A stretch of 34,287 nucleotides of DNA from Solirubrobacterales bacterium (GCA_038222365.1 JBBRHQ010000001.1:1-34287), one strand, 5' to 3'. Shown: positions 1 to 26,751, counted from the stretch's first letter. Notes: generated by a model not told the origin, from the letters alone. Numbers and translations: made by a program.

Positions 1-1215
1 ATCGCGCGGCGAAACCGCGACGTCGGCGAGCTGAACGCCTCGGCCCGCGCCCTCCTACTCGCCGAAGCGAGGGTGGGGGCCGAGGCGGTGCGGATAGCCG
101 AGCGCGAGTTCGCCGCCGGCGATCGGGTCATCACCCGGATCAACACCGCAGAGGTCTCCAACCGCGAGCGCTGGACCGTCACCGCGGTCGACCCCAAGCG
201 CCACAGCGTGGAGCTGCAGCGGATCGGCGGCGGCGAGCGAAACGTCAACCTCGGCGCCGACTACCTCCAGCGCCGAACCCAAAATGGCGACCCTGCCCTC
301 GAGCACGCCTACGCCCTGACGATCTACGGCTCAGAGGGCAAGAGCGTCGATCAAGCCTTCGCCTTGCTCGACGCCGGCTCCGGCCAGGAGGAGCTGGTCG
401 TCGCCCTATCCCGCGCCCGCGCGCAGACCCACGCCTACGGGGTCGCCTCGATCGAGCTGACCGACCCCGAGCTGGGGCCGGGCAGGCGGCCGATCGAGGA
501 TGAGCTACACGAGCTCCGCGCCGCCGCCGAGCGCCCCGGAGCCGAGGGCGCGGCGCTCGAGCTCACCCTGCGGGAGCGGATCGCGCAGGCCGAGGTCGGT
601 GAGCTTCGTGCCCGCCAAGCCGAGCTGCGCTCCCGCCAGCGCGCTTCGGAGGCCCGCTCACCGCTTCAGAGCGAGCTCACCGAGATCGATCAGCGGGTCG
701 AGTGGGCCGAGCGCGGCCTGGAGCGCTGGGGCGAGCTCGAGCGGGTCGGGACGAACCAGGCGTGCGGGGCCGAGGAGCTTTGCCGTCTTTACCCCGAGCG
801 CGATCGCCTCACCGCGGAGGTCGCCCGCTTCGAGGCCCAGAGACCGAGTAGTCTCGACCCCTCCGAGCGCCTCGAGCAGGGGCTGATCGCCGAGCGCCTA
901 GGTCAGCTGCTGCGCCGCGAGGTCGCCGCCGAGCGCCTCCAACCCTCGGCCTTCCTCCGCGAGGCGCTCGGGGAGCGACCGACGGATCCACGTCTGCTCG
1001 AGGCCTGGAACCAGGGCGCTCAGGAGATTCACTCCTACCGCCAGGCCCACGGGGTCCGCGACACCCGGCGGGCCCTCGGAGTCGAGCCGCAAGGGGGCTT
1101 CGAGCACGCGGCCTGGGAACGGAGCGCGGAGCGGCTGGCGGACCTGCAGCGCCAGCTCGGGGTGAGCCGCGAGCTCGAGCGCTCGCTGGAGCGCCGCATC
1201 GGGCTCGAGCTCTGA
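1..1215 (+). CDS. Relaxase/helicase C-terminal region (MobF/TraA-like), 5'-truncated by the window edge
   Basis: Frame 1 is open from nt 1 (IARRNRDVGELNASARALLLAE...), so the ORF-track start at 73 is internal. FAAGDRVITRINTAEVSNRERWTVTAVD and EHAYALTIYGSEGKSVDQAFALLD resemble the C-terminal helicase part of TraA/TrwC-type relaxases. The HKSQG-type motif is degenerate here. A long Arg/Glu/Leu-rich coiled-coil tail follows. Stop TGA at 1213-1215. Confidence 0.55.
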   Translation: MARRNRDVGELNASARALLLAEARVGAEAVRIAEREFAAGDRVITRINTAEVSNRERWTVTAVDPKRHSVELQRIGGGERNVNLGADYLQRRTQNGDPALEHAYALTIYGSEGKSVDQAFALLDAGSGQEELVVALSRARAQTHAYGVASIELTDPELGPGRRPIEDELHELRAAAERPGAEGAALELTLRERIAQAEVGELRARQAELRSRQRASEARSPLQSELTEIDQRVEWAERGLERWGELERVGTNQACGAEELCRLYPERDRLTAEVARFEAQRPSSLDPSERLEQGLIAERLGQLLRREVAAERLQPSAFLREALGERPTDPRLLEAWNQGAQEIHSYRQAHGVRDTRRALGVEPQGGFEHAAWERSAERLADLQRQLGVSRELERSLERRIGLEL

Positions 1216-1306
1216 TCGCTTCGCAGCGCAGCTGAGGCACCCTCACGGCCGCCGTCTGCGCGGCGTCGGCCGGGCGTCGGTCGGCCAAGTCTGGCACGGC
1301 TTCGCC

Positions 1307-1891
1307 GTGCGGTTGGCCGCCCTCATGGACGCCCAGCCGAAGTCACGAGCATCTGTCAGCCGTGAGCGAAACGCCGAGCTGCTGGGGGCGGTTCTGGCCG
1401 AGTCCGAGGCGCTGCTGCGCCGCCAGGCGCGGAGGCACGCCGAGCTCTCCGAGGACGCCGAGGACGCGCTCTCCTCCGCCTGCGTGCTCTTCATCGAGCG
1501 CTACCGCGGCGACTGCGATCCGCTTGCCTGGCTTCAGACCACGGTCAAGCGCGAGGCGTGGCGGATTCGGCGCAGGGCGTCGAGGAGGCGCGAGGTCAGC
1601 CTCGATGCTCCCTGCGCCGGGGTCGAGGACGGGTGTCCCTGGGTCGAGGCGGTGCCTGCCGAGTCGCCAGAACCGGAAGTGATGGCGATCCGCTGCGAGG
1701 AGCTGCGCGAGCGCGAGGCGCTGTTGGGGGAGCTGAAGCCGGACGAGCGGCAGGCGCTGGTGCTGTTGGCGCTCGGTTTCAGCTACGCCGAGATCTGCGA
1801 GATCTGTTCGTGGACGTACACGAAGGTGAACCGCTCGATCGCCGAGGGGCGCGCGGCGCTTCGCGGCCGCCTCTCCCATCAGGGGGGCTAG
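1307..1891 (+). CDS. Sigma-70 family (ECF-like) RNA polymerase sigma factor
   Basis: Region-2-like AEDALSSACVLFIERYRGDCDPLAWLQTTVKREAWRIRRR. Region-4 HTH-like LKPDERQALVLLALGFSYAEICEICSWTYTKVNRSIAEGRAALRGRL. The start is uncertain (GTG 1307 or ATG 1325). Confidence 0.7.
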   Translation: MRLAALMDAQPKSRASVSRERNAELLGAVLAESEALLRRQARRHAELSEDAEDALSSACVLFIERYRGDCDPLAWLQTTVKREAWRIRRRASRRREVSLDAPCAGVEDGCPWVEAVPAESPEPEVMAIRCEELREREALLGELKPDERQALVLLALGFSYAEICEICSWTYTKVNRSIAEGRAALRGRLSHQGG

Positions 1892-2003
1892 ATCGCGGTC
1901 GTCACGGCTCTATCAACCATGCCCGGGCATCGGTGTTACGAAGCTTCAGCCGCGCCTAACGGCGCAATTGATCGGATTCGACGACATATAGATCTGAGAG
2001 CAC

Positions 2004-2267
2004 ATGTCGGGCGTGAGTCAAAAGAGCGAGGGTCCCAACGGATCCGAGACCAAGAAAGCCGGGGCGGTCACAGCTCTCCTGACCGCCGAGGAAGTGGCCG
2101 ATCTGCTCCGAGTGACCACCTCCTGGGTGTACGCGCAGAGCCGGGCCGAGCGGATACCGCACGTTCGACTCGGACGCTACGTGCGCTTCCGCCGCGACGC
2201 GATCGAACGATGGATCGCTCGCGTCGAGGCCGGCGCAGATCCCACCGCACTGCCGTTCAAGCGCTGA
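2004..2267 (+). CDS. xis: Excisionase-type helix-turn-helix DNA-binding protein (MerR/HTH_17-like)
   Basis: LLTAEEVADLLRVTTSWVYAQSRAERIPHVRLGRYVRFRRDAIERWI is the classic excisionase-family HTH pattern. The gene lies immediately upstream of the integrase. Confidence 0.75.
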   Translation: MSGVSQKSEGPNGSETKKAGAVTALLTAEEVADLLRVTTSWVYAQSRAERIPHVRLGRYVRFRRDAIERWIARVEAGADPTALPFKR

Positions 2268-2312
2268 GGGCGGCCCGGAGGCAGATGGAATCAGCCTTGC
2301 GATGACGCGCTG

Positions 2313-3545
2313 ATGTCACCGGATGAGCCGTCAAGTGAGGTCGGTGTCAAACGTCCGTACGGTGCAGGCTCCCTGTCGGTGCGCCGCGCCGCGACGGGTC
2401 GGGAGGTCTGGTACGGGCAATGGTGGGTTGGACGGAAGCACCTCAAACGCAGGCTGGGGCTGAAGCGGCCAGTCGGCACGCGGGAAGGCCTGACCAGATC
2501 CCAGGCTGAGCGCGAGCTCCGTCGCCTGATCCAGAGCGAGAGCCCGGTGGCGGAGGCGGGTTCGTCCCTAACGGTTGAGGATGCCGGCTCCCGCCTCCTC
2601 CGGCAGCTGGCGGGCGCCGGGCGAAAGAAGTCCACGCTGGAGGGGTATGAGTCGGCGCTCCGGGTCCATCTGGTGCCCTTCTTCTGTGAAAGGGGGCTGG
2701 ATCGGATCAGCCGGGATGACGTCGAGGCGTTCGCGTCACGCGTGTCCTCGGGGCGCTCCGCAAAGAGCGTGCAGAACTACGTCGGCCTCCTGCATTCGAT
2801 CTTTGAGTTCGCGATCGCCCGAGGCTGGGCTTCCTCGAATCCGTGCAAGCGGGCACTGAGGCCGCAAGCGATCGAGGCCGATCCGGACATCCGATTCCTC
2901 GATCAGCCAGAGCTCGAGTCGCTGCTGGGCGCGGTCCCAGATCCTAAATCCCCGATCGGGAGGCTCAGCAAGGCGCTCTACCTCACGGCGGCGATGACCG
3001 GGCTGCGCCAGGGCGAGCTCTTGGCCCTGCGCTGGCGCGATATTGATTGGTCGGCGGGCAGAATCCGGGTGCGGCGCAACTTCGTTCGTGGCGTATACGG
3101 AACGCCGAAGTCCAAGCGCTCTTCAAGATCGGTGCCGCTGGCCGGTCGGGTCGCCGAGGCGCTTGCCCACCACTTCGATTGCTCTGTCTACAAGACTGAC
3201 GACGACCTCGTCTTCGGGCACCCCGAATCTGGCAAGCCGCTCGATCGCTCCAGGCTGCTGAAGCGCTACAAGGCGTCGCTCAGGCGGGCGGGGGTGCGCG
3301 ACGTTCGCTTCCACGATTTGCGCCACACCTTCGGCACACGCTGCGCGGCGGCCGGCGTTCCTTTGCGGACGATTCAGGAGTGGATGGGCCACCGTGACTT
3401 TAAGACGACGCTGATCTACGCCGATTACGCGCCTAGCGAGCGAGAGGCCGAGATGATCGAGCAGGCTTTCAACCGCGCGGAGGGGCGAGGCGGAGGAGAG
3501 GGTTCCTCCGAGGATCCGGCCGAGCAGACTGGCGTTATTCGTTAA
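2313..3545 (+). CDS. int: Tyrosine site-specific recombinase (phage-type integrase)
   Basis: The C-terminal catalytic region reads ...LTAAMTGLRQGELLALRWRDID...FHDLRHTFGTRCAAAGVPLRTIQEWMGHRDFKTTLIYADY, giving the R..HxxR..Y signature. The N-terminal SAM-like domain reads YESALRVHLVPFF. ATG 2313, TAA 3543-3545. Confidence 0.92.
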   Translation: MSPDEPSSEVGVKRPYGAGSLSVRRAATGREVWYGQWWVGRKHLKRRLGLKRPVGTREGLTRSQAERELRRLIQSESPVAEAGSSLTVEDAGSRLLRQLAGAGRKKSTLEGYESALRVHLVPFFCERGLDRISRDDVEAFASRVSSGRSAKSVQNYVGLLHSIFEFAIARGWASSNPCKRALRPQAIEADPDIRFLDQPELESLLGAVPDPKSPIGRLSKALYLTAAMTGLRQGELLALRWRDIDWSAGRIRVRRNFVRGVYGTPKSKRSSRSVPLAGRVAEALAHHFDCSVYKTDDDLVFGHPESGKPLDRSRLLKRYKASLRRAGVRDVRFHDLRHTFGTRCAAAGVPLRTIQEWMGHRDFKTTLIYADYAPSEREAEMIEQAFNRAEGRGGGEGSSEDPAEQTGVIR

Positions 3546-3589
3546 GTTTTCCCGCAGAAAAACCTAACAACTTTGCTACACTCTCGCGT

Positions 3590-4339
3590 GTGGGTAAACC
3601 AGGCCAAAACCCAAAGCGCAAACGCGAAAAGAGCTCCCATGCCGGGAGTGCCTCTGCTCGCATCCGCCAGCGGGTGAGAGCTGGCGGAGAGCGCTACTGG
3701 CGCCATGAGGACTTCCCCGCTCTGCCGACGGCAGCCGTGGCCATGACCTTGTCGAGGCTGGTCAGCGAAGGGGAGCTGCAGCGGGTGCGCAAGGGCCTCT
3801 ACTATCGACCCCGGCAGACCCGCTTCGGTCAAAGCATTCCGGTGGCGAGCGCCGCGGTGGCCCAGAGTCTGCGTACGCCCGTTCATCCGGCCGGGCTGAC
3901 CGCCTCCAACGCTCTGGGCTTCACGACCCAAAACCCAGCCCGCCTGGAGTACGCAACGCCGGCGAGTGACCCGCCGACGTCGCTTGCCGATGCGATCGTC
4001 TACACGCGCCGCCCAGCCGCCCGCGAGGGTCTCAGCGCCGAAGATGGCGCGCTGCTGGAGTTTCTACGCGAGCGGGGGCAAAGCAGCGATCTGTCCCCCG
4101 CCCAAACTCTTGATCGTTTGCGCCGGCTGCTCTCCGAGCCGGGTCGTTTCGCGCGGCTGGTGCGGGCGGCAGAGAAGGAACCGGCCCGGGTGCGGGCGAT
4201 GCTCGGTGCCCTCGGGGAAGAGCTGGGCGGCGATCCCAAGCTGCTGCGCAAGCTACGCCAGAGCCTCAGCCCGCTTTCCCGGTATGAGTTCGGGAAGCTC
4301 CGCGGGCTTGTCCATGCCCAAGCGTGGCAGGCGAAGTGA
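3590..4339 (+). CDS. AbiEi-like antitoxin / transcriptional regulator (type IV TA)
   Basis: N-terminal winged-helix-like LSRLVSEGELQRVRKGLYY is the AbiEi_4-type motif. Its TGA stop at 4337-4339 overlaps an in-frame GTG of abiEii at 4336 (GTGA). 249 aa. Confidence 0.65.
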   Translation: MGKPGQNPKRKREKSSHAGSASARIRQRVRAGGERYWRHEDFPALPTAAVAMTLSRLVSEGELQRVRKGLYYRPRQTRFGQSIPVASAAVAQSLRTPVHPAGLTASNALGFTTQNPARLEYATPASDPPTSLADAIVYTRRPAAREGLSAEDGALLEFLRERGQSSDLSPAQTLDRLRRLLSEPGRFARLVRAAEKEPARVRAMLGALGEELGGDPKLLRKLRQSLSPLSRYEFGKLRGLVHAQAWQAK

Positions 4340-5289
4340 ACCTGCACGAGGCGGCGGAGTTCCAGGATGCGCTGCTCGCCACGGCCCAGGACCTCGACCT
4401 GGATGAGCGTTTCGTCGAGAAGGACTACTACCTGACCGAGGTCCTAAGGGTCGTCGTTGGGACCCACCCGGACCGGGCGATCCTCAAAGGCGGCACCAGC
4501 CTTACCAAGGGTTGGCAGCTGATCGACCGCTTCTCGGAGGACATCGACCTCTTCGTCGACCCTGAGGCTTGGACTCCGCCGCTCGGCAAGAATGGTGTCG
4601 ATCGCGAGCTCAAGTGCCTTCGCGATGCAATCGCTGCCCACCCAGCGCTCAGCTACGTGGAGGGTGAGGGCAACACAATCGGGGGCTTCGGTCGGGAGGA
4701 CTCCTTCAAATACGACTCGCTCTTCCAGGAGTTGCCTGGCCTGCGCAGCGCCATCCTGTTGGAGCCTGGGGTGCAGAGCGGCCGGCAGCCTACCGAGGCC
4801 GTCCAGGTCTCATCGATGGTGGGCGAATACCTCCGCGGGCATAGTGGGAGCGACCTCGCCGACGACCTGGAGCCGTTCGAGATGACCCTTCTGCATTTCC
4901 GGCGCACATTCGTCGAGAAGCTGTTCATCGTCCATGGCAAGGTCGAGCGTCTGCACACGGAAGGGCACCCACTTGGCCGCGACGCACGCCACTACGCGGA
5001 TCTCTACGCACTGGCCGGTCGCGCTGAGGTTGTGGAGATGCTCCGCACCTCGGAGTACGACGAAATCAAGGATGACTACGACCAGCTCAGCCGGCGGTTC
5101 TACCCGACGAGCTACAGGTCGCCGCCAGAGCTCAGCTTCGTGGACAGCGATGCCCTCACACTTCCCGCGGATCTTCGGGTCCAGATAGAGGTTGACTACG
5201 AGGCGGAGTGTCGTCGCCTCTTCCCGGGCCCCTATCCCTCGCTCGATGAGGTCGTCGAACGGCTCGGAACGCTGCGGGCTCAGCTATAG
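4324..5289 (+). CDS. abiEii: AbiEii/AbiGii-family nucleotidyltransferase toxin (DUF1814)
   Basis: EKDYYLTEVLRVVVGTHPDRAILKGGTSLTKGWQLIDRFSEDIDLFVD matches the nucleotidyltransferase G[ST] ... DxD core of AbiEii. The start is either GTG 4324 or the in-frame GTG 4336. Confidence 0.85.
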   Translation: MAGEVNLHEAAEFQDALLATAQDLDLDERFVEKDYYLTEVLRVVVGTHPDRAILKGGTSLTKGWQLIDRFSEDIDLFVDPEAWTPPLGKNGVDRELKCLRDAIAAHPALSYVEGEGNTIGGFGREDSFKYDSLFQELPGLRSAILLEPGVQSGRQPTEAVQVSSMVGEYLRGHSGSDLADDLEPFEMTLLHFRRTFVEKLFIVHGKVERLHTEGHPLGRDARHYADLYALAGRAEVVEMLRTSEYDEIKDDYDQLSRRFYPTSYRSPPELSFVDSDALTLPADLRVQIEVDYEAECRRLFPGPYPSLDEVVERLGTLRAQL

Positions 5290-5475
5290 ACCTCTCCACG
5301 TAGGTGCCAGCCGCAAGGGCCGGGGCTCGGCCGAGCCAAGCGGTCCTGCATTTTCAAGCGCGACTGGAAACGCGGTCCGAGCGCCGAGGTGTCTCCTGCG
5401 ACCACGCCTGAGGTCCCCAATTTGCGGACGAGGGCGTGTGCCATCCGAGCAGGGGGACAGAATCCCTCGGACATA

Positions 5476-7027: not shown

Positions 7028-7451
7028 TCGCACCTCATAGGCCTATTGCCCGATCACTCGATTTGAGGGGATTGAGATATCCTCGACTCCCGGCCGCGTA
7101 GGCGCGAAGCACCCGATCGCCGCGGATCGTCGCGGGTCACCTCAGCAGCTCGAGCGCGCGCTCGACGGTGTTGTAGTGGGCCGGGGCTCGGCCCAATCGG
7201 CCCGCGCGGCCTAACCCGGGTCCTCGAAGAAGCGCTGCGGCGCCCGGTTGAGCGCATTGGCGAACACTAGGCCTCCGCCGACTCGGCTGCCGCTGAGGAT
7301 TCCGACGCCATTGAAGCCCGCGGTTCTAGCTTCGCTCGAAATTGACAGGGCTCCAATTCGGGCTCCAATTTGTAGGAAAGCCAGCGACACCGAGGGCACC
7401 TGTCGTGCGTGAACCGGCGCGTCTCGATCGCTAGAAACTGCCCTGGTCGGT

Positions 7452-7496
7452 TTGTGGTCCAGGCGGTCGCGGGTTCGAGTCCCGTCGCTCACCTTG
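7452..7496 (+). repeat. tRNA-His(GTG) 3' fragment, copy A (tRNA positions 32-73 plus TT); att-like site
   Basis: TTGTGGT (anticodon loop with U33, GTG and G37) - CCAGG - CGGTC - GCGGG TTCGAGT CCCGT (T arm) - CGCTCAC (acceptor 3' strand) - C73, the His-specific discriminator. No matching GTGAGCG 5' strand or D arm lies upstream. It is identical to the copies at 10405 and 12999. Confidence 0.85.
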
Positions 7497-7614
7497 AGGC
7501 ATTCCCCTCTACAACGGGGAATCTCCCGACCTGGCTCTCGACTGCGACCTGGGCTGCTACCAACTTGGTCCCAATCTGTAGCTGCCGGGTAGCCAGGAGG
7601 CCGATGGCGAGATG
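7497..7614 (+). repeat. Conserved ~120-nt module following the tRNA-His fragment, copy 1
   Basis: About 85% identical by eye to 10450-10568. It contains the hairpin ATTCCCC-tctacaac-GGGGAAT, the TTGGTCCCAAT motif, GCTACC/GGTAGC pairing options, and AGGAGGCCGATGGCGAGATG. Confidence 0.8.
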
Positions 7615-7765
7615 GGGCGCATCGGCACTAACCTGGCCACATTCCCGCCAGCCACAGGCCAGCTTCGGGCTCTGGCGCTGAGAGAATTCCACGGGCTGGG
7701 TAGTTCTGCCGGTTCCATAGCTCCTACTCAGCCGGGCCAGAGCAAAGCGCGATACTGGGCAGGCG

Positions 7766-8182
7766 ATGTCGCAGGAGAACGTGGAAATCGTGCGACGGCT
7801 CTACGCGGAGTGGGAGGACGAGGCATTCAAGGGCCTCGATGACGAGGCATACGACCTTCTCGATCTCGATCCTGAGATTGAATGGGACGCGTCCAGACGG
7901 ACCTTCGATCCAGGCGTGTACCACGGCTATGACGGCATCAGGGCGATGTCGGCTGGACTGCGCGAGGTCTGGGAGTCCGGGCGTATCGAGCCGCTGGAGT
8001 TCATTCAGGCAGGGGAAAAAGTCGTCGTCCCAGTCCGGCTCGTGATGGTCAGCAGGACAGATCGCCAAGCGGTCACCGCCAACGCCGCACACATATGGAC
8101 GTTGCGAGACGGAAGGGTTATTCGGCATTGCGGGTTCCAAACCAAAGCCGAGGCCCTCGAAGCCGCAGGGCTGTCGGAGTAG
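7766..8182 (+). CDS. NTF2/SnoaL-like protein, array cassette 1
   Basis: 138 aa. N-terminus MSQENVEIVRRLY, C-terminus KAEALEAAGLSE. Size and helix-then-beta pattern are typical of SnoaL_2/DUF4440-type NTF2 folds. Confidence 0.8.
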   Translation: MSQENVEIVRRLYAEWEDEAFKGLDDEAYDLLDLDPEIEWDASRRTFDPGVYHGYDGIRAMSAGLREVWESGRIEPLEFIQAGEKVVVPVRLVMVSRTDRQAVTANAAHIWTLRDGRVIRHCGFQTKAEALEAAGLSE

Positions 8183-8185
8183 GCG

Positions 8186-8629
8186 ATGTCGAAGGAGAAC
8201 ATCGAGCAGGAGAACGTGAGGGTTGTGCTGGAGGGGTTCGCCCGCTACAACGCCGATGAGGGAGGCCTGGAGTGGCGGCTGCGGGCGCTGCCCAAGGTGA
8301 TGGCGACGTATTGGCAGCCCGACGGGGAGTACCACACCGATTCGAGGGACCCCGATTCGACGATCCATCGCGGGATCGATGCCATCACGCGGCACTTCGC
8401 CACCTGGTTCGAGGCATACCCCGATCTCAAGGTCGAGCCGGTGGAGGCGAAGGCAAGCGCTGACAAGGTATTCGTCTGGCTGCGCTTCAGCGGTCATGGA
8501 GCGGGAAGCAACGTCCCGATTGAGATGGAACTGGCGCACGTCATCACCCTGCGGGACCGCAAGTGGGCGCGAACAGTTGAGTACGCGGACAAGGCCCAAG
8601 CCCTCGAAGCCGCCGGGCTGTCGGAGTAG
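8186..8629 (+). CDS. NTF2/SnoaL-like protein, array cassette 2
   Basis: 147 aa. MSKENIEQENVRVVLEGF carries a duplicated N-terminal motif. C-terminus KAQALEAAGLSE. It starts 3 nt after the cassette 1 stop. Confidence 0.8.
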   Translation: MSKENIEQENVRVVLEGFARYNADEGGLEWRLRALPKVMATYWQPDGEYHTDSRDPDSTIHRGIDAITRHFATWFEAYPDLKVEPVEAKASADKVFVWLRFSGHGAGSNVPIEMELAHVITLRDRKWARTVEYADKAQALEAAGLSE

Positions 8630-8632
8630 GCG

Positions 8633-9034
8633 ATGTCGCAGGAGAACGTGGAGATCGTGCGGCGCATGAACGAGGCCTTCAACCGCGGCGATATGGATGC
8701 CGTGGCCGAGTTGCTCGACCTGCAAATCGTCTACTTCGAGCACGGCTCGAATGTCGATACGCCCTCCGTTCTCCATGGCCGATCTGCCCTGTTGGAAGCA
8801 CTGGGCCAGTTCATGGAGGCCTTTGATGACCTCGTGGGGGATATCGAGGAGCTTGTGGATGCTGGTGACAGGGTTGTTACGACGACCCACTGGCGGGGTA
8901 CCGGCGCAGGCAGCGGCGCAGCGGCTGACCTGCGGGAGGTGATCTCCTGGAAGGTCGAGAACGGAGTCGCCGTAGAGGGTCGCGTGTTCGCGGATCGCCA
9001 GGAGGCCCTCGAAGCCGCCGGGCTTTTGGAGTAG
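8633..9034 (+). CDS. NTF2/SnoaL-like protein, array cassette 3
   Basis: 133 aa. MSQENVEIVRRMNEAFNRGDMDAVAELLD is the canonical SnoaL-like N-terminal helix. C-terminus RQEALEAAGLLE. Confidence 0.85.
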   Translation: MSQENVEIVRRMNEAFNRGDMDAVAELLDLQIVYFEHGSNVDTPSVLHGRSALLEALGQFMEAFDDLVGDIEELVDAGDRVVTTTHWRGTGAGSGAAADLREVISWKVENGVAVEGRVFADRQEALEAAGLLE

Positions 9035-9037
9035 GCG

Positions 9038-9430
9038 ATGTCGCAGGAGAACATTGACTTGCTTCGTCCTGGCTATGAACAGTTCGCAAGGGGCGACTTC
9101 AGCGCGTTCTCGGAGTTGCCCGATGACTTCGAGCTTGTTCTCGCCCCTGAGATGCCCGATGCGGGTAGCTATCTCGGTGAGGCAGCCCGACGCTGGCTGA
9201 TGTCGTGGGTGGAGTCTTTTGATCGGCTCACGATGGAGGCGATCGAGTTCATCGACGCTGGTGACCAGGTGCTCATCGAGATGATTCAGCGAGGCTGGCT
9301 TGCGGGGAGTGATGAAGTCGTCGAGACGCGTACCTGGGCGGTAAATACCTTCCGTGAGGGTGCCGTTCTGCGAATCGAGTTGTTTCAAGCCCGGGGAAAA
9401 GCCCTCGAAGCCGCCGGGCTTGAGGAGTAG
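9038..9430 (+). CDS. NTF2/SnoaL-like protein, array cassette 4
   Basis: 130 aa. MSQENIDLLRPGYEQFARGDFSAF ... RGKALEAAGLEE. Confidence 0.8.
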   Translation: MSQENIDLLRPGYEQFARGDFSAFSELPDDFELVLAPEMPDAGSYLGEAARRWLMSWVESFDRLTMEAIEFIDAGDQVLIEMIQRGWLAGSDEVVETRTWAVNTFREGAVLRIELFQARGKALEAAGLEE

Positions 9431-9433
9431 ACG

Positions 9434-9832
9434 ATGTCACGGGAGGACGCCGACAGAATCCGGCGGGCCTATGAGGTTTGGAATGAGTCGGGTCCAGCAG
9501 CGGTGACGGTTCGGTTCTGGGCTGAGGATGCCGTCTATCGCGAGGGGCCGGGCTGGCCCAATGCCGGTGTCTACGAAGGGCGTGCAGCCGCCCTTGAACG
9601 CATGCAAAGTCTGATCGAGCTGATGGGGTCGATCGAGGTGTGCCTCGATGAGTTGATCGATGTCGGAGATGGCCGCTTGGTTGCCTGCACGAGCATGGTC
9701 GGGGAGGGTGCGAACGCGCCCTACACTCAGTCCTTCGCCGTCGTGCATCGCATGCGGGACGGCCTCATCGTCGAGGCCGACTACTACCTCGACCGCGCCC
9801 AGGCCCTCGAAGCTGTCGGGCTTGAGGAATAG
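9434..9832 (+). CDS. NTF2/SnoaL-like protein, array cassette 5
   Basis: 132 aa. MSREDADRIRRAYEVWNESG ... RAQALEAVGLEE. Confidence 0.8.
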   Translation: MSREDADRIRRAYEVWNESGPAAVTVRFWAEDAVYREGPGWPNAGVYEGRAAALERMQSLIELMGSIEVCLDELIDVGDGRLVACTSMVGEGANAPYTQSFAVVHRMRDGLIVEADYYLDRAQALEAVGLEE

Positions 9833-9835
9833 GCG

Positions 9836-10240
9836 ATGTCGCAGGAGAACGTGAAGGTGGTGCGGCGGTTCTGCGAACGGGACGACCAGACCAGCCTGGA
9901 TTCGCTGATGGCGATCCTGCACCCGGATATCGAATGGGTCCCGGTGGAATCAGACCCGGAGTACTCCGTACACCGCGGACACGACGACGTTCGCGCCTGG
10001 TTGACGTCTTGGGCCGAGTCGTTTCCGGACCTGCGTTGGGAACTCGATCGCATCCTCGATGCGGGGAGCGATCTCGTGGTCACGTTCGTACGTATGGCGG
10101 GCCGCTCTGACGCGACTGGTATCGACCTGGAAACCCCGTCCTACGCGGTGGTATTCACGCTCCGGGGCGAGAAGATCGCGCGGATCCATGAATACGTCGA
10201 CAGCCAGGAGGCTCTCCAAGCCGCAGGGCTGTCGGAGTAG
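9836..10240 (+). CDS. NTF2/SnoaL-like protein, array cassette 6
   Basis: 134 aa. MSQENVKVVRRF ... SQEALQAAGLSE. Confidence 0.8.
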   Translation: MSQENVKVVRRFCERDDQTSLDSLMAILHPDIEWVPVESDPEYSVHRGHDDVRAWLTSWAESFPDLRWELDRILDAGSDLVVTFVRMAGRSDATGIDLETPSYAVVFTLRGEKIARIHEYVDSQEALQAAGLSE

Positions 10241-10243
10241 GCG

Positions 10244-10375
10244 ATGTCGCAGGAGAACGTGGAGACAATCCGGCGGGACTACTCGGCGAGCCCATCCCGT
10301 GGTAGCAACCGAGGTAACTCAATGAGCAAATCTCAGCCGAACTCAGAGCACCTCAGCGAAGGTCACCGTACCTGA
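10244..10375 (+). pseudogene. Vestigial seventh NTF2 cassette (only the conserved 5' end is retained)
   Basis: ATGTCGCAGGAGAACGTGGAGACAATCCGGCGG (MSQENVETIRR) follows the standard TAG-GCG junction. The sequence then diverges and stops after 43 codons, just before tRNA-His fragment B. Confidence 0.7.
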
Positions 10376-10404
10376 GCGACGGCTACTGATCCCAATCTCT
10401 GAGG

Positions 10405-10449
10405 TTGTGGTCCAGGCGGTCGCGGGTTCGAGTCCCGTCGCTCACCTTC
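10405..10449 (+). repeat. tRNA-His(GTG) 3' fragment, copy B; att-like site
   Basis: The 42-mer is identical to copy A and is followed by TT. The upstream sequence has no D arm or anticodon-stem 5' strand. Confidence 0.85.
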
Positions 10450-10568
10450 AGTGATTCCCTCTACAACGGGGAATCTCCCCCACCTGCGTTCTCGACGCGA
10501 CCTCGGGCTGCTACCAATTTGGTCCCAATCCGTAGCTGCCAGGTAGCCAGGAGGCCGATGGCGAGATG
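10450..10568 (+). repeat. Conserved ~120-nt module following the tRNA-His fragment, copy 2
   Basis: Homologous to 7497-7614 with the same hairpin, TTGGTCCCAAT motif and AGGAGGCCGATGGCGAGATG. Small indels shift every reading frame, which argues for a non-coding function. Confidence 0.8.
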
Positions 10569-10849
10569 TGGCACAGGGCCGGGATCGGCGAACGAGAGGA
10601 ACGCAACTGATGACTGAGAAGGAGCTTCCAGATAGCGTCAGGGCCGAGGTCCAGAGAATCCTGGACCGAGAAGCTCGACGGCTCCTGGACGAGCAGCTCG
10701 CGGAGCAGAACAGGGCGAGCGAAAGGCCCTGCAACCACCGGTGAATAGCCGCACACGCCAGCGGCCCGTTACCTAAGATTCAGGCACACAGACCGGGGCC
10801 TGCGACCGCGTGAACGGCCCAGGCCCCATGACCATCAGGAGGTACCCCG

Positions 10850-11056
10850 ATGGCACGCAGGAGCGTAACCCCCAGCTCGCCGCTGGCCCCGCCAGCACCC
10901 AGGGAGCCGGTCGAGCTGGAGTTCGTCCAGGAGCCCTACCGGAGCCGCATTCGGCGCGAAGCTAAGCGGCAGGGAGGCGTCGAGAGCATCGCTGTCGGAG
11001 GCGAGGCGATCCTCGTCAGGTACAGCAGCGGCGCTTCTGCCGTGTACGGCGGGTGA
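10850..11056 (+). CDS. Hypothetical protein (68 aa)
   Basis: A good SD (AGGAGG) lies 7 nt upstream of the ATG. No family recognised. Confidence 0.4.
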   Translation: MARRSVTPSSPLAPPAPREPVELEFVQEPYRSRIRREAKRQGGVESIAVGGEAILVRYSSGASAVYGG

Positions 11057-11113
11057 TCCAGTTGAACCGACGCTCTGAGAGCCGTTCTGAGGCTTCCGAA
11101 ATATTTCCCCGGA

Positions 11114-11550
11114 GTGATATCCCTTCCGGATAGCGGGGTCCCGCTGGTCACCACGAACTGGCGCACGGCGAACCAGCTCCACGAGACCGGGTCGCGGTCC
11201 TTCGTACCGGTGCGAATCAGCCTGGGTCGGCTCCGCGATTTGGGCTGGACGGAGGCGGTCCATGCATCCGGGAGCTCGTCCCGAGCCGGCGCATCTTCCG
11301 GGCCCCGCCAGGGGAGTTCGACTCGCGCTATCTGGAGCAGCTCGAGAAACACGGCGTTGAGAAGATCGGCGAGCGGATCATCGAGGTCCACGCCGAGTAT
11401 CGGCTCCCGCTCGCGCTGCTCTGCTTCGAGGACGTTCACGCGGGCCAGGACTGCCACCGTCGCCTGTTCGCCAAGTGGTGGGAGATGAACACCGGCCAGA
11501 CGGTCCCGGAACTGGGGCCGTACGTCCTGCGCGGGGGCCCTATTCAGTAG
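11114..11550 (+). pseudogene. DUF488-like gene interrupted by a frameshift near 11250-11265
   Basis: The N-terminal part reads in one frame (PLVTTNWRTANQLHETGSRSFVPVRISLGR). The C-terminal part reads in another (IRELVPSRRIFRAPPGEFDSRYLEQLEKHGVEKIGERIIEVHAEYRLPLALLCFEDVHAGQDCHRRLFAKWWE...) and ends at TAG 11548-11550. LLCFE...CHR is the DUF488 signature. Confidence 0.55.
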
Positions 11551-11626
11551 GTTCCGACGATGACGAGAGGGACGGTGCGTATGCCGGCGGTGCCAGCCCT
11601 GGAGCTCAGAAGGAGCTAAAGCCTCA

Positions 11627-12307
11627 ATGGGCCACATCTTCCTCTTCTCGCTGGTCGCCGCAGCGAACGCCACCCTGCTCGCCGCTGTGACGGCGATGCT
11701 CTTCCTGCCGAACCCGAAGCGCCTCCTGCTCGGCTACCTACTGGGCGGCCTGCTCGTCAGCCTCACCATCGGCTTCGTGATCGTCTTCGTGGTGCACCAG
11801 TCGGGCGCGACCAGTACGACGCAGAACAGCATCAGCCCAGCGATGGACATCGCGCTCGGGCTGATCTTGTTGGTGGTCGCCTACGTGCCCCGGAGTGAGC
11901 GCATGGAGCACAGGCGGGAGCGGAAGAGGAAGGAGAAGGAAGGGGTTGAGAAAGGCCCGTCCAGGGTCGAGCGGATCCTGGGCAGAGGCTCCGCCGGCGT
12001 CACGTTTGTGGTCGGCGTGGTTCTCACCCTCCCCGGCGTCTCCTACCTCGCCGCACTCCACGAGCTCGACAATCTGAACTACGGGACAGTCCCGACCATC
12101 CTGGTCATCCTCGGCTTTAACGCGATACTTCTGCTGCTGCTTGAGATCCCGTTGATCGGATATGTGTTAGCCCCGGAGCGGACCGTGGTGGAGGCCCAGC
12201 GCTTCAGGGCCTGGCTTAGCCGGAATGGCCTCAGGGCAGGGATTTACGTCGCAGCGGGACTGGGGGTGCTGCTGATCGTCCGGGGCGTGATCGAGTTCCT
12301 CACATAG
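11627..12307 (+). CDS. Integral membrane protein, GAP/Sap (DUF2910)-like
   Basis: 226 aa with several hydrophobic helices. The N-terminus FSLVAAANATLLAAVTAMLFLPNPKRLLLGYLLGGLLVSL and a central basic loop (RRERKRKEKEG) resemble the actinobacterial GAP family. The family call is tentative. Confidence 0.55.
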   Translation: MGHIFLFSLVAAANATLLAAVTAMLFLPNPKRLLLGYLLGGLLVSLTIGFVIVFVVHQSGATSTTQNSISPAMDIALGLILLVVAYVPRSERMEHRRERKRKEKEGVEKGPSRVERILGRGSAGVTFVVGVVLTLPGVSYLAALHELDNLNYGTVPTILVILGFNAILLLLLEIPLIGYVLAPERTVVEAQRFRAWLSRNGLRAGIYVAAGLGVLLIVRGVIEFLT

Positions 12308-12635
12308 ACGCCACCCCCACGTGAGTCGGATAGGGTCGGCTTGACCCAACCGAAGGAGGGCATCGCCGTCTAACCCGCCTGGCACCGCTAACGGCCGGAC
12401 TGCCGGAGTAGGCCGCGCGTTCTGGTCAGGCGGCAGGTTCTGCGGCGCGGCGAGGCCAAGCCGGGACCTAACAAGCGGCGGCGAGAGGTCGCCGCCTGAG
12501 GCGACGCAAGCAGGAAGTCCTTCCGATCCCGCTACGACACTTGAGCAGCAGCTAGTAACTCGGCTTGCGGAGAACGCTCCCCGTAAGCCATGCCACCGAG
12601 GGCCGGAGCAAGAGCCTCGCCGCGACCCGAGCCTC

Positions 12636-12884
12636 GTGGACCACAATCACCAGCCGACCCGGGACGTGGAGAACAACCCGGTCGTGCTCGACGCCAAGAT
12701 CGAGAAGCTCGCTGACCTGGGCGAGCTGCATGCGAAGGTCCAGCACCTGATCCGCCTCGAAAAATCGGTGGAGGCGAAGATCCGCGACTACATCGAGGCC
12801 CACGGCCCCGAGCTGCTCCAGGAGTTCAATGAGCTGGTCGAGCGGGCGTTCAGCTCCCTGCCCTCAGCGGCAGAGCATCGTTAG
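12636..12884 (+). CDS. Hypothetical small coiled-coil protein (82 aa)
   Basis: GTG start and a charged helical sequence. It ends 9 nt before the tandem TTGGTC(A/C)CAAT motif. No family recognised. Confidence 0.35.
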   Translation: MDHNHQPTRDVENNPVVLDAKIEKLADLGELHAKVQHLIRLEKSVEAKIRDYIEAHGPELLQEFNELVERAFSSLPSAAEHR

Positions 12885-12998
12885 CGGGGTGCTTGGTCAC
12901 AATTTGGTCCCAATCCGTAGCGCACACCCCTCAACGGCACCCCCCAAAGGACGCCTGGATCGAACTCAACGCAACAAGACGGCACCCACCCCGTCTAA

Positions 12999-13044
12999 TT
13001 GTGGTCCAGGCGGTCGCGGGTTCGAGTCCCGTCGCTCACCTTCA
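12999..13044 (+). repeat. tRNA-His(GTG) 3' fragment, copy C; att-like site and probable outer boundary of the accreted islands
   Basis: The 42-mer is identical to copies A and B and is followed by TTCA. The A/B downstream module is absent here, and the flank differs and leads into backbone-like genes. Confidence 0.85.
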
Positions 13045-13145
13045 CGGATTCCCATCCTAGGGACCACCAGCAACGGCTCTGATTCCGGGCACATGCCGCC
13101 CTCCGGATAGTTCGGCGGCTTGACGGTTTGGGGTGCATGATGGAC

Positions 13146-13724
13146 TCAGGCATGCAGGGTGGGCCGGTAGACGAACTCTTGGATGTGGCTGTCGAGCGTC
13201 CGGCTCTCGATCAGCTCGAGGTCGAAGTCGGCCGCACCCTGGAAGACCGGGTCCAGCCCGGTCTGAGCGGTGATCACAGGGAAGAGCGTCACCTGTACGC
13301 GGTCGACCAGACCGGCGGCCATCAGCGCCCGGTTCATCGAAAGGCTGCCGTGCGAGCGCAACGGCACCGCGGACTGATCCTTGAGCCGAGCGATGACGTC
13401 GACGGCATCGCCGCTCACGACGGTCGCGTCCGGCCAGTCGAGGGGCCCTTCCAGTGTGGTCGACACCACCGTTGCCGGCAGGCTAACCATCCGGATGACC
13501 CATGGGTCACGCACGTCGGACTCCTCGGGGCTCGAGGCCAGCATCCGCGCGAACGCGCGATACGTGTTGGCCCCGAAGACCATCCGCTGCTCCTCGCCGT
13601 ACAAGGCGAGACGGTGGTCGAGCAACTCCGGGCCTTGCTTGCCCCAGTAGCCGGTCCAGTTGCCGCTGGCGGCGCCGAAGCCGTCGAGGCTGGAAAAGAC
13701 GTCGAAGGTGTACGTGGCGGCCAT
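13146..13724 (-). CDS. Dihydrofolate reductase family protein (RibD C-terminal domain-like)
   Basis: MAATYTFDVFSSLDGFGA...MVFGANTYRAF...LRSHGSLSMNRALMAAGLVDRVQVTLFPVI matches the RibD_C/YwjB-like family pattern. AAGGAG lies 7-8 nt upstream of ATG 13724, so the longer ORF-track start at 13811 is unlikely. Confidence 0.8.
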   Translation of the reverse strand: MAATYTFDVFSSLDGFGAASGNWTGYWGKQGPELLDHRLALYGEEQRMVFGANTYRAFARMLASSPEESDVRDPWVIRMVSLPATVVSTTLEGPLDWPDATVVSGDAVDVIARLKDQSAVPLRSHGSLSMNRALMAAGLVDRVQVTLFPVITAQTGLDPVFQGAADFDLELIESRTLDSHIQEFVYRPTLHA

Positions 13725-13848
13725 GATGCTCTCCTTGAGTGCGGGTGATCGTGCAGGTACTCGAACAACCAGTGTCAATGTTGAGTTTCTGAGATCGATC
13801 GGGCCTGTCATCCGGCATGTGCAGAAACAAACCGATGCGACATCGCTA

Positions 13849-14241
13849 CTACTCCTGTAGTCCGGCGGCTTCGAGGGCCTCGGCTCGGCCGACGATCGTC
13901 CTCAACTCGATCAGCCTCTCGCCTGCAAATGTGAACAGCCAAGCCAGCGGTTGGTCGAACTCCACTCCGCTGGTGCGGCCACGGGCGTGCACCGCCCCGA
14001 AGGCGAGGAGCCGACCCTCGGACGCATCCCTGAACTGATCGACCGAGATGCTCCAATCCTCGAACTGATCATCGATCTCGGCCATCCACCGCCGCAACCC
14101 GTCGTAGCCGCGATACTCCGCATTGGTCATCGCCGAATGGACCACGAAGTCGGGATGGGCGATCTCCGCATCAATCTCCCTCTCGCCCGCATTCCAGCGC
14201 TCAAAGGTGCGGCGCATCAGATCTTCGGTCTCCTGCGACAT
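13849..14241 (-). CDS. NTF2/SnoaL-like protein, lone paralog of the array family
   Basis: MSQETEDLMRRTFERWNAG ... RAEALEAAGLQE. It begins ATGTCGCAGGAGAC like the array cassettes and ends TAG TAG. Confidence 0.8.
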   Translation of the reverse strand: MSQETEDLMRRTFERWNAGEREIDAEIAHPDFVVHSAMTNAEYRGYDGLRRWMAEIDDQFEDWSISVDQFRDASEGRLLAFGAVHARGRTSGVEFDQPLAWLFTFAGERLIELRTIVGRAEALEAAGLQE

Positions 14242-14289
14242 CACCTGCGCATTATCGCTCGCGACGGGGCCGGGTCGAAGCGGGGTCCG

Positions 14290-25747: not shown

Positions 25748-26731
25748 ATGAACGAGACCGCGCATCAGATCCGACCACTCTTCCTGCTCTCGCTGCCGCG
25801 CAGCGGTTCGACCCTGGTCCAGCGCGTTCTCGCCCGCAGCCCGCAGGTTGCGACCGCATCCGAAACGTGGTTGCTAATGCCATACCTCGCTGCAACTCCG
25901 GTCGAGCCCCTGCCCTCGAGGGGCGCCTGGGATGTGACCGCGGCCGCGGGGATCGCGGACTTCAACCGGGAGCTGCCCGCCGGGATCGATTCCTATCGCG
26001 AGGCGGTGCATGACTTCGCAGTGAAGCTGTATTCGCAGGCAGCCGATCACGGTGCCATCTATTTCCTAGACAAGACCCCGCCCTATGCGCATTTCCTGCC
26101 CGAGTTGGCGCAGACCTTCCCGGAGGCCAAGTTCATCGCCCTTTGGCGGAACCCGCTGGCGGTGGTTGCGTCGATCGTCGAGACCTTCTGTGACGGGCGA
26201 TGGGAACCGGACCGCTATCCGCAGAGCCTTTACGGCGCTCTGGAGGCGTTAGTCTCCTCGATCGAGTCACATCCGGATCGTGTCCGCTCGGTCCGCTTTG
26301 AGGACTTGGCCTCGGCGGATGCCGGTGCGTGGACGGGATTGATGGACTTCCTCGATCTCGAGTTCGACCCCGCCTTCCTCGATGACTTCGGTCAGGTGAC
26401 CCTGGCCGGCCGGTTGGGCGACAAGCACGGCGCGGCTCGGTACTCGGAGCTGAGCCTCGAGCCGCTGACGAAGTGGAAGCGGGCGATCCACAACCCGCTG
26501 CGCAGGGCCTGGTGCCGCCGCTACCTCGATTGGATCGGACCGCAGCGCCTCGAGGTGATGGGCTATGACCACGCGCTGCTCCAGCGGGAGCTGGCAGCGA
26601 CGTCCGTCGGCCCCTCAGGACTTGCCGGGGATTCGGTACGGACGGCCGAGTCAGTTGCCCGGCGCCTGCTACGCACACGAGCGATCGCTGCGGAGGCGGC
26701 GATGGGGACGGAGGCGGCGATGGGGACGTAG
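25748..26731 (+). CDS. Sulfotransferase family protein (Sulfotransfer_3-like)
   Basis: LFLLSLPRSGSTLVQRVL is a 5'-phosphosulfate-binding loop (PRSGST). YFLDKTPPYAHFLPELAQTFPEAKFIALWRNPLAVVAS is the 3'-phosphate-binding region. Confidence 0.8.
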   Translation: MNETAHQIRPLFLLSLPRSGSTLVQRVLARSPQVATASETWLLMPYLAATPVEPLPSRGAWDVTAAAGIADFNRELPAGIDSYREAVHDFAVKLYSQAADHGAIYFLDKTPPYAHFLPELAQTFPEAKFIALWRNPLAVVASIVETFCDGRWEPDRYPQSLYGALEALVSSIESHPDRVRSVRFEDLASADAGAWTGLMDFLDLEFDPAFLDDFGQVTLAGRLGDKHGAARYSELSLEPLTKWKRAIHNPLRRAWCRRYLDWIGPQRLEVMGYDHALLQRELAATSVGPSGLAGDSVRTAESVARRLLRTRAIAAEAAMGTEAAMGT

Positions 26732-26745
26732 GCGGCGATGGGGAC
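26692..26745 (+). repeat. 18-bp tandem repeat, three units (GGAGGCGGCGATGGGGAC)
   Basis: Units lie at 26692-26709, 26710-26727 and 26728-26745. Units 1-2 encode EAAMGT twice at the sulfotransferase C-terminus. In unit 3 a GAG-to-TAG difference forms the stop codon. Confidence 0.9.
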
Positions 26746-26751
26746 GGGCCG

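Follow-up and report, generated by a model that had tools for sequence, protein, structure and literature searches.

Three tRNA-His 3′ halves on a Solirubrobacterales contig: a probable record of serial integration at one tRNA gene

Introduction

Why would one stretch of bacterial DNA carry the 3′ half of a tRNA gene three times, always in the same orientation, and its 5′ half not once? The question is raised by a contig of an uncultured soil bacterium of the order Solirubrobacterales, which was analysed over its entire 34,287 nt (the window hereafter, its start and end being those of the contig). The repeated unit is a 42-mer, TTGTGGTCCAGGCGGTCGCGGGTTCGAGTCCCGTCGCTCACC. Its three copies are most probably (at about 0.85, in our estimate) attachment (att) cores produced by three successive site-specific integrations into a single tRNA-His(GTG) gene.

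A tRNA-His 3′ half in three copies

The three copies, with the role that each is given here, are the following.

7452-7493, plus strand: copy A, hybrid junction at which the attR core of the resident integrative mobilizable element (IME) is joined to the attL side of island 1
10405-10446, plus strand: copy B, hybrid junction between island 1 and island 2
12999-13040, plus strand: copy C, terminal attR core, taken as the displaced original tRNA-His 3′ end; no P′ arm after it

An earlier note on this DNA had reported these copies, all on the plus strand and each followed by TT, and an exact search confirms them with 0 mismatches. With the two bases directly 3′ of each copy, the shared exact repeat reaches 44 nt. 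No match to the 42-mer arose in 100 dinucleotide-preserving shuffles, and a fuzzy search allowing up to 12 substitutions found no fourth copy in the window. The 42-mer had been parsed as positions 32-73 of tRNA-His(GTG), beginning with the first anticodon-loop base and ending with C73, and the intact gene of a close relative described below (L122 1107-1181) agrees with this parsing; there, G-1 is encoded upstream. The claim that no tRNA 5′ half or D arm stands beside the copies also holds: within the window, neither the 5′ half of tRNA-His (32 nt, up to 9 substitutions) nor its D arm (up to 3 mismatches) was found, and ARAGORN predicts 0 tRNA genes. Cores A, B, and C are hence orphans, and they lack the 5′ anticodon-stem half of the attB core. 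The sole match in Rfam, a sub-threshold tmRNA hit on the T arm of copy C, was judged spurious.

Distribution of the 42-mer in related genomes

The exact 42-mer was then scanned against one genome per species, and at least 118 stretches matched. Among the matches listed, almost all come from Solirubrobacterales, Thermoleophilaceae, or Conexibacter-type metagenome-assembled genomes, and 89 of the 123 copies (72%) lie within intact tRNA-His(GTG) genes, the remaining 34 being orphans. Where an intact gene and an orphan are found on one contig in this set, the orphan is always downstream and on the same strand, at a distance of 1.4 to ~80 kb. The 42-mer is thus a genuine tRNA-His 3′ half, as had been proposed. 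The opposite possibility raised at the time, a dispersed repeat present at many non-tRNA loci, fails because most of the listed copies are the tRNA-His gene itself and the orphans lie downstream of an intact gene in the same orientation. The tRNA-His gene appears as a major integration hotspot in Solirubrobacterales, with at least one quarter of the sampled genes occupied and with recurrent tandem junctions.

Arm repeats around the cores

In other genomes, orphan cores are preceded at ~100 nt by a tandem pair of ~11-nt units (e.g., GGGCTCCAATT, GAGCTACCAATT, GGGTACCAATT, or GGGGTCCAATT, each twice), and occupied tRNA-His genes have a like tandem pair ~100 nt after the start of the core. A simple tandem-repeat detector was applied to the intervals from -130 to -65 upstream and from +80 to +140 downstream, each compared with a control interval. 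The upstream repeat was detected at 20 of 33 orphans (1 of 33 in the control), and the downstream one at 24 of 85 intact tRNAs (2 of 85 in the control). A downstream repeat is additionally present at 8 of 34 orphans, which we read as internal junctions of tandem arrays in those genomes. The tandem pairs are putative P and P′ arm-type sites of a lambda-like heterobivalent integrase. The window contains the following candidates for such sites.

7348-7371, plus strand: P arm of the resident IME, GGGCTCCAATT twice, ~100 nt upstream of copy A; the single exact site in the window
7494-7621, plus strand: P′ side of island 1, with a hairpin at 7501-7522 and the repeat GCTACCAACT/TGGTCCCAATCT at 7556-7577
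10301-10323, plus strand: decayed P arm of island 1, GGTAGCAACC GAGGTAACTCAAT, abutting a truncated SnoaL gene
10447-10575, plus strand: P′ side of island 2, with a hairpin at 10454-10474 and the repeat GCTACCAATT/TGGTCCCAATCC at 10510-10531
12895-12916, plus strand: P arm of island 2, GGTCACAATT TGGTCCCAATCC, having 21 nt in common with the P′ arm of island 2

The doubled GGGCTCCAATT stands at the same distance from the orphan core in the close relative (L121) and is found likewise in L044 and L049. The islands have another arm type, GCTACCAAYT/TGGTCCCAATC, the P arm of copy B being decayed; the sequence that follows this decayed arm, TGAGCAAATCTCAGCCGAACTCAG, resembles the tail (TGAGCGAAACTGAG...) of the P arms in L057, L063, and L065. 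The P′ regions after copies A and B (7494-7621 and 10447-10575) are 86-90% identical, ~88% overall (repeat families D4 and D5). Nothing arm-like follows copy C. The order in the window is therefore P-A-P′, decayed P-B-P′, and P-C with no P′, which matches exactly the prediction for a tandem array that has its end at C. At the other end, a search left of the integrase gene for an attL in the window gave no degenerate fourth core, no tRNA 5′ half, and no P′ arm of the GGCTCCAAT type.

In six other loci (L044, L049, L087, L105, L023, and L021), where the integrase gene directly abuts attR, both arm repeats form part of the 3′ end of the int frame, where they code for ...AFGAGSNSGSNL or something similar. 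In these relatives, the arm-type sites and the C-terminal tail of the integrase are thus the same DNA.

A model of serial integration

The arrangement can be accounted for if each element's attP duplicated tRNA positions 32-73 and had tandem ~11-nt arm repeats on both sides of this core, P at ~100 nt upstream of it and P′ at ~100 nt downstream of its start. A heterobivalent tyrosine integrase would exchange strands in the region of the anticodon loop, regenerating the tRNA at attL and displacing the earlier 3′ half to attR. Further rounds of integration at the restored tRNA would then stack the elements, in the order tRNA-His (off the contig), resident IME, A, island 1, B, island 2, C, and chromosome, and the leftmost element would be the youngest. 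The earlier note had taken the copies as cores of a tRNA-targeting tyrosine integrase and the locus as a case of serial accretion; the tRNA identity, the arm pattern, the relatives of the integrase, and the two integrase-less islands all support it. Its layout is supported from the resident element through A, island 1, B, island 2, and C to the backbone, and its leftmost member, the intact tRNA, lies off the contig and is placed by homology only.

Read in this way, the contig can be annotated as a relaxase-bearing mobilizable element and two dead remnants, followed by chromosome. It is a clean case of island accretion with clear limits, from an actinobacterial order that is uncultured and has been little studied. 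The mechanism itself is already known, and the taxon and the element family appear to be undescribed; a literature search joining Solirubrobacterales with tandem accretion or tRNA-island themes found no paper.

The left end in close relatives

The earlier note had assumed that scannable DNA lies to the left of the window, which is not the case since the window is already the whole contig. The left end was thus approached by homology. An exact look-up of the window integrase itself, in a 410-aa and a 388-aa form, found neither on record. The protein P0121, in the 90% cluster of the window integrase (Int), belongs to a 593-kb Solirubrobacterales contig (L121), which was walked leftward via P0143 to L122. 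Window positions 1-5292 are 86.7% identical in nucleotides to this relative, and the P arm with copy A 81% identical. Both genomes have the gene order relaxase, sigma factor, xis, int, AbiEi, AbiEii, with 76-97% amino acid identity. In the relative, an intact tRNA-His(GTG) gene is found 21 kb upstream of an orphan core (L121 13043-13084). Its 3′ part is exactly the 42-mer of the window, and a P′ arm, GGCTCCAATT twice, stands ~105 nt after the start of the core. At the right end of the relative come the P arm (GGGCTCCAATT twice), an orphan core that is one base off, and ordinary chromosome with no P′ arm. The IME sits there alone, with no islands behind it.

The base that separates the regenerated tRNA of the relative (L122 1139-1180) from its displaced core is in the T loop, G in one and A in the other (GGTTCGAGTCCC and GGTTCGAATCCC, respectively), which indicates that element and host tRNA were not identical when they recombined. 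The attempt to place the crossover from this difference was abandoned, as either parental assignment fits.

More distant relatives have the same architecture. In L001 and L002, whose Int proteins are 62-65% identical to that of the window, one finds in order the tRNA-His gene, cargo, (xis) int, a toxin-antitoxin pair, the P arm, and an orphan core, and the identity block has the same TTGTGG start. By comparison with the 21-kb relative, we infer that the window element continues ~15-16 kb to the left of the contig end, up to an intact tRNA-His gene. This gene is not visible directly because the contig ends inside the relaxase gene.

The resident element

The part of the IME that lies in the window has the following genes.

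1-1215, plus strand: TrwC/TraA-type relaxase, 3′ part, cut by the left end of the contig; resident IME
1307-1891, plus strand: ECF-type sigma-70 factor (Pfam Sigma70_r4_2 and r2, NCBIfam sigma70-ECF), just upstream of xis
2004-2267, plus strand: xis, excisionase-like (Pfam HTH_17, E = 3.6e-13), 90% identical in amino acids to its L121 homologue
2313-3545, plus strand: tyrosine integrase int, likely start at 2379, product of 388 aa (P0001; Pfam Phage_integrase, PF00589, E = 9e-31)
3590-5289, plus strand: AbiEi/AbiEii toxin-antitoxin cargo (Pfam DUF6088/AbiEi and AbiEii), syntenic with L121 and 90-97% identical in amino acids
5293-7314, strand not assigned: extra IME cargo of ~2 kb between AbiEii and the P arm, with small open reading frames (ORFs), missing from L121

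The relaxase gene can be read in frame 0 from base 1 onwards; its product has 76% identity with residues 655-1075 of the TrwC relaxase of L121 (1075 aa) and matches the NCBIfam model TraA_Ti with E = 1e-11. Since the gene reaches base 1, a step in G+C at ~2 kb is not an element boundary. Int retains all of its catalytic motifs (LRQGE, HDLRHT, MGH, and IYADY, i.e., R, K, HxxR, H, and Y) and is 92% identical to P0121. The visible part of the IME is intact, and its Int and Xis may well be active at present. The ~2 kb of additional cargo are delimited by the blastn comparison with L121, in which the alignment stops at 5292 and restarts at 7315. The ORFs in between have no significant matches in Pfam or NCBIfam, and one of them has a weak PHD-like antitoxin match. 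The position of an ECF-type sigma factor gene between the relaxase and xis-int, found in both copies of the element, is unusual. The protein is 81% identical in amino acids to that of the gene at the same position in L121 (8932-9354), and it may regulate excision or transfer.

The class of the element follows from the relative. Its complete 21 kb contain insertion sequence copies, DUF3892 and DUF5122 genes, and the 1075-aa TrwC relaxase as the only transfer gene; precomputed Pfam matches and gene sizes reveal in it no TraB, Rep, VirB4, or coupling-protein gene, nor any gene of the size of VirB4, T4CP, or TraB. The resident element is hence better described as an IME than as an actinomycete integrative and conjugative element (AICE) of the pSAM2 type. 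The window itself has int, xis, and the 3′ end of the relaxase and, as judged by homology, no complete conjugation apparatus, so that IME is the best name for it. The earlier comparison with pSAM2-type elements is not borne out: the relaxase is of the TrwC/TraA type, and neither TraB/TraSA nor RepSA is found in the window part or in the complete relative.

The two islands

The DNA between the cores contains three features of interest.

7766-10282, plus strand: island 1 cargo, six tandem SnoaL_2 genes (7766-10240) and a seventh truncated after ~13 codons (10244-10282); Pfam SnoaL_2
11627-12307, plus strand: island 2 cargo, Sap/SfLAP-family membrane protein (Pfam SfLAP, E = 1e-28); island 2 also has unassigned ORFs
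12636-12884, plus strand: ORF with an Int-like C-terminus, ending in ...NELVERAFSS (ELVERAF encoded at 12831-12851)

Both islands are flanked by att cores. No integrase homology was found between A and C (7494-12998), and no transfer genes were found in either island with Pfam and NCBIfam. Both islands are decayed remnants that have no integrase and come from other elements, with different arm sequences. Int proteins of the relatives end in ...HE..LVERAFG..., directly before the P arm or running through it, and the ORF at 12636-12884 is therefore suggestive of a remnant of island 2's own deleted int gene, although the match is short. A gene 87% identical in nucleotides to the Sap gene of island 2 lies near another orphan core in L099; this locus was rejected as a counterpart of the island, as synteny ends at the Sap gene.

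The SnoaL_2 genes of island 1 are covered by repeat families D1-D3. The seven SnoaL_2 paralogues of 7766-10282 and 13849-14244 (the latter stretch lying to the right of copy C, see following) are only 24-38% identical as proteins and have common termini (MSQENVE..VRR and ..EALEAAGLSE). The junctions of the array (~75 nt comprising a stop, 3 nt, and a start) are 70-77% identical. A cassette or recombination signal was considered for them and rejected, conserved N- and C-terminal protein motifs in a high-G+C genome being simpler. SnoaL genes, often paired, are also found beside tRNA-His in L009, L030, L037, L050, L061, and L098.

The right flank

To the right of copy C there are two minus-strand genes.

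13078-13751, minus strand: RibD_C-family gene, the first gene right of copy C
13849-14244, minus strand: SnoaL-like gene, transcribed towards the att array (convergent); regarded here as marking the chromosomal flank

A polysaccharide-synthesis cluster follows, and no mobile-element functions were found among these genes further right. In L037, L098, L061, L009, and L028, convergent SnoaL genes are found a short way downstream of tRNA-His or the last orphan core, and their recurrence fits a chromosomal position for the gene at 13849-14244.

The RibD_C gene is present at more than 549 soil-metagenome loci with 86-93% nucleotide identity. The similarity is confined to the gene and a ~70-nt trailer, the flanks being mostly unrelated, and among 80 such loci (L124-L203), none has the tRNA-His or its core. 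As the gene is a dispersed conserved module, an empty-site test based on it is uninformative for synteny. Many of the RibD_C loci have a conserved leader of ~100 nt upstream of the start, which is missing in the window, and Rfam gives no match on five of these loci. The gene could be a very widely transferred single-gene module, or the leader could be an undescribed RNA. Further right still, three 18-nt tandem repeats (GCGATGGGGACGGAGGCG-like) are found at 26681-26747 around the end of a sulfotransferase-family ORF (25748-26731).

Weighing the alternatives

Several observations weigh against three clean integrations into one gene. The intact tRNA-His and the resident attL are off the contig, so that the left end is deduced through homology only. 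The P and P′ arms of island 1 match poorly, and the island stops on the right at a deletion joint within a SnoaL gene, which points to a history more complex than a single clean integration. On the right, RibD_C is dispersed and not a syntenic backbone gene, and the G+C stays low until ~16 kb; the DNA beyond C may thus not be pristine chromosome. A search of viral contigs with the exact 42-mer and a degenerate version of it found no free attP form. A metagenome misassembly at the repeats is also conceivable for the array. Four other explanations have to be considered in the light of these points.

The array might be a functional composite, in which the resident Int and Xis recombine the attL on the tRNA side with B or C and so co-mobilise the islands with the IME. 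The three cores are 100% identical, both Int and Xis appear intact, a relaxase is present, and copy C keeps a recognisable P arm; furthermore, cis-mobilisation of such tandems is documented in streptococci and in Streptomyces (PMC5704250; PMC9513070). Against this stand the arms, which differ: GGGCTCCAATT twice in the resident element, GGTCACAATT/TGGTCCCAATCC at C, and a decayed P arm at B. The close relative, moreover, has the same IME without islands. Arm type also tracks the N-terminus of Int. Among eight Ints with known arms (a small sample), the N-terminal ~70 residues are 30-55% identical, compared with 50-70% for the rest of the protein, and proteins with the same arms are mutual best matches in this putative arm-binding region. 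The best N-terminal pairs with a common arm type are L001/L087, L023/L021, and the window with L121, and the window Int is in this region only 30-36% identical to the Ints with GGGGTCCAA arms. The earlier proposal that the islands could be excised or co-mobilised by the neighbouring integrase is thus not supported, small as the sample of Ints is; mobilisation by the resident Int is doubtful, and a functional composite unlikely.

Another possibility is that the elements did not arrive in the order from right to left. Later elements might have entered an orphan core, that is, a site of the attR type, or a pre-assembled composite might have arrived in one transfer. Both integration into attR and transfer of whole composites are described for tandems built from integrative conjugative elements (ICEs), IMEs, and cis-mobilizable elements (CIMEs) (PMC5704250), and the ~88% identity of the P′ regions after A and B would allow islands 1 and 2 to share a history. 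However, the elements are more decayed the further right they lie from the intact one, as expected if the newest element is the one beside the tRNA, and the missing 5′ anticodon-stem half would make the orphan cores poorer candidates for a target. An order of arrival other than stepwise integration at the tRNA has, in our opinion, a low probability.

The third explanation is an assembly chimera, in which different occupants of the tRNA-His site, taken from strains living together, were joined end to end. The contig does come from a metagenome-assembled genome, and in related genomes this hotspot has many alternative occupants. Yet the exact shared repeat of 44 nt is below the usual assembly k-mers, every junction has the combination of P and P′ arms expected of a real tandem array, and like tandem junctions are found in long-read-scale contigs of other genomes, e.g., L044 and L049. 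We consider a chimera very improbable.

Finally, the copies might be partial duplicates of tRNA-His or belong to a short dispersed repeat that has nothing to do with mobile elements. Nothing beyond the repeat itself favours this explanation, and it is effectively refuted, since in all copies the identity begins exactly at the anticodon loop and stops at C73, the arm repeats, int-xis, and relatives bounded by tRNA and orphan core point to site-specific integration, the window has no copy elsewhere, and most of the listed copies in other genomes are the tRNA itself. Serial integration at one tRNA-His gene remains the explanation that we favour.

Arm diversity and other occupants of the site

The diversity of arm units around one core (e.g., GGGCTCCAATT, GAGCTACCAAT, GGGTACCAATT, GGGGTCCAATT, CGGGCATCAAT, and GGGGACAGAA) allows a tentative and more general proposal, which we put forward as a possibility with the odds against it. 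In Solirubrobacterales, a single tRNA-His core may be common to at least 12 integrase lineages, the ~11-nt arms having diversified with the N-terminal domain of Int, so that co-resident elements would be mutually orthogonal. If true, such arm codes would keep stacked elements from excising one another, remnants that have no integrase of their own would be locked in place, and nature would offer a set of orthogonal integrase/att pairs on one attB. The comparative set of integrases and arm repeats could be mined for orthogonal recombination tools.

A different kind of occupant is found in L076 and L028 (CAVRTB010000001.1, 640553-650880), where a 10.3-kb element with xis and int sits in the tRNA-His site and has two large ORFs, by eye RepA/AAA-type and terminase-large-subunit-like. 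If this reading of the ORFs is right, satellite- or phage-like elements use the tRNA-His core too, although the 42-mer occurs in 0 viral contigs.

On the other side of the tRNA, an epimerase gene is a recurrent upstream neighbour of tRNA-His in many of the scanned genomes. In L002 (343-2754), this NAD-dependent epimerase gene, directly upstream of the tRNA, carries an intein (Pfam matches Intein_splicing and LAGLIDADG).

Comparison with known systems

Accretion with decayed, CIME-like remnants has been reviewed for ICESt1/ICESt3 of Streptococcus thermophilus and for tandems of IMEs, ICEs, and CIMEs (PMC5704250). As in the streptococcal tandems, the window has one site, identical direct repeats between elements, hybrid internal junctions, and a single element with a recombination module, its neighbours having lost integrase and transfer genes and kept their att sites. 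The differences lie in the host (Solirubrobacterales), the target (tRNA-His), and the integrase lineage. Furthermore, cis-mobilisation, the functional hallmark of CIMEs, is doubtful here, as the arms of the remnants differ from those of the resident element.

The tRNA-Arg hotspot of Streptomyces, at which AICEs and defective AICEs accrete, is a closer parallel in taxonomic terms (PMC9513070). In both cases an actinobacterial tRNA gene has one to three elements of different families with identical direct repeats and an ancient remnant, and the integrases that use the site are only distantly related. The AICEs of that hotspot have TraB/FtsK-type transfer, whereas the resident element here has a relaxase of the TrwC/TraA type and its 21-kb relative has no TraB or Rep.

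Among the tRNA-borne islands in the Islander database, 2083 are of class A, with an anticodon-centred attP, and tandem arrays number 125 with at least two members and 4 with at least three (PMC4383910). The window resembles class A in its tRNA 3′ fragments in tRNA orientation, in the identity block from the anticodon loop to the 3′ end, and in the use of a tyrosine integrase. The direct repeat starting at the anticodon loop and the catalytic tyrosine recombinase are found in the window itself, and the regenerated tRNA is found in the 87%-identical relative, in L001, and in L002. Islander counts an array as a tandem only when every member has an integrase. In the window, one member of three has kept its integrase, and the tRNA lies beyond the contig.

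The arrangement of Int/Xis genes beside an att site and the targeting of a tRNA 3′ part recall pSAM2 of Streptomyces ambofaciens. In pSAM2, Int and Xis are encoded beside attP, and the element integrates into the 3′ part of a tRNA gene with identity from the anticodon loop to the 3′ end. AICEs of this type transfer double-stranded DNA through the FtsK-like TraSA and replicate through RepSA. Unlike pSAM2, the element described here and its relative encode a relaxase.

The likeness to lambda-type heterobivalent integrases concerns the architecture of the att sites. Repeated sequences that are probably of the arm type flank the core on both sides at fixed distances, a xis gene is present, and the arm sequence appears to co-vary with the divergent N-terminal region of Int. 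The lambda-type systems differ in one respect from several relatives of the window, in which the int frame itself takes in the P arm repeats at its 3′ end, as part of the sequence encoding the C-terminal tail of the protein that would bind them.

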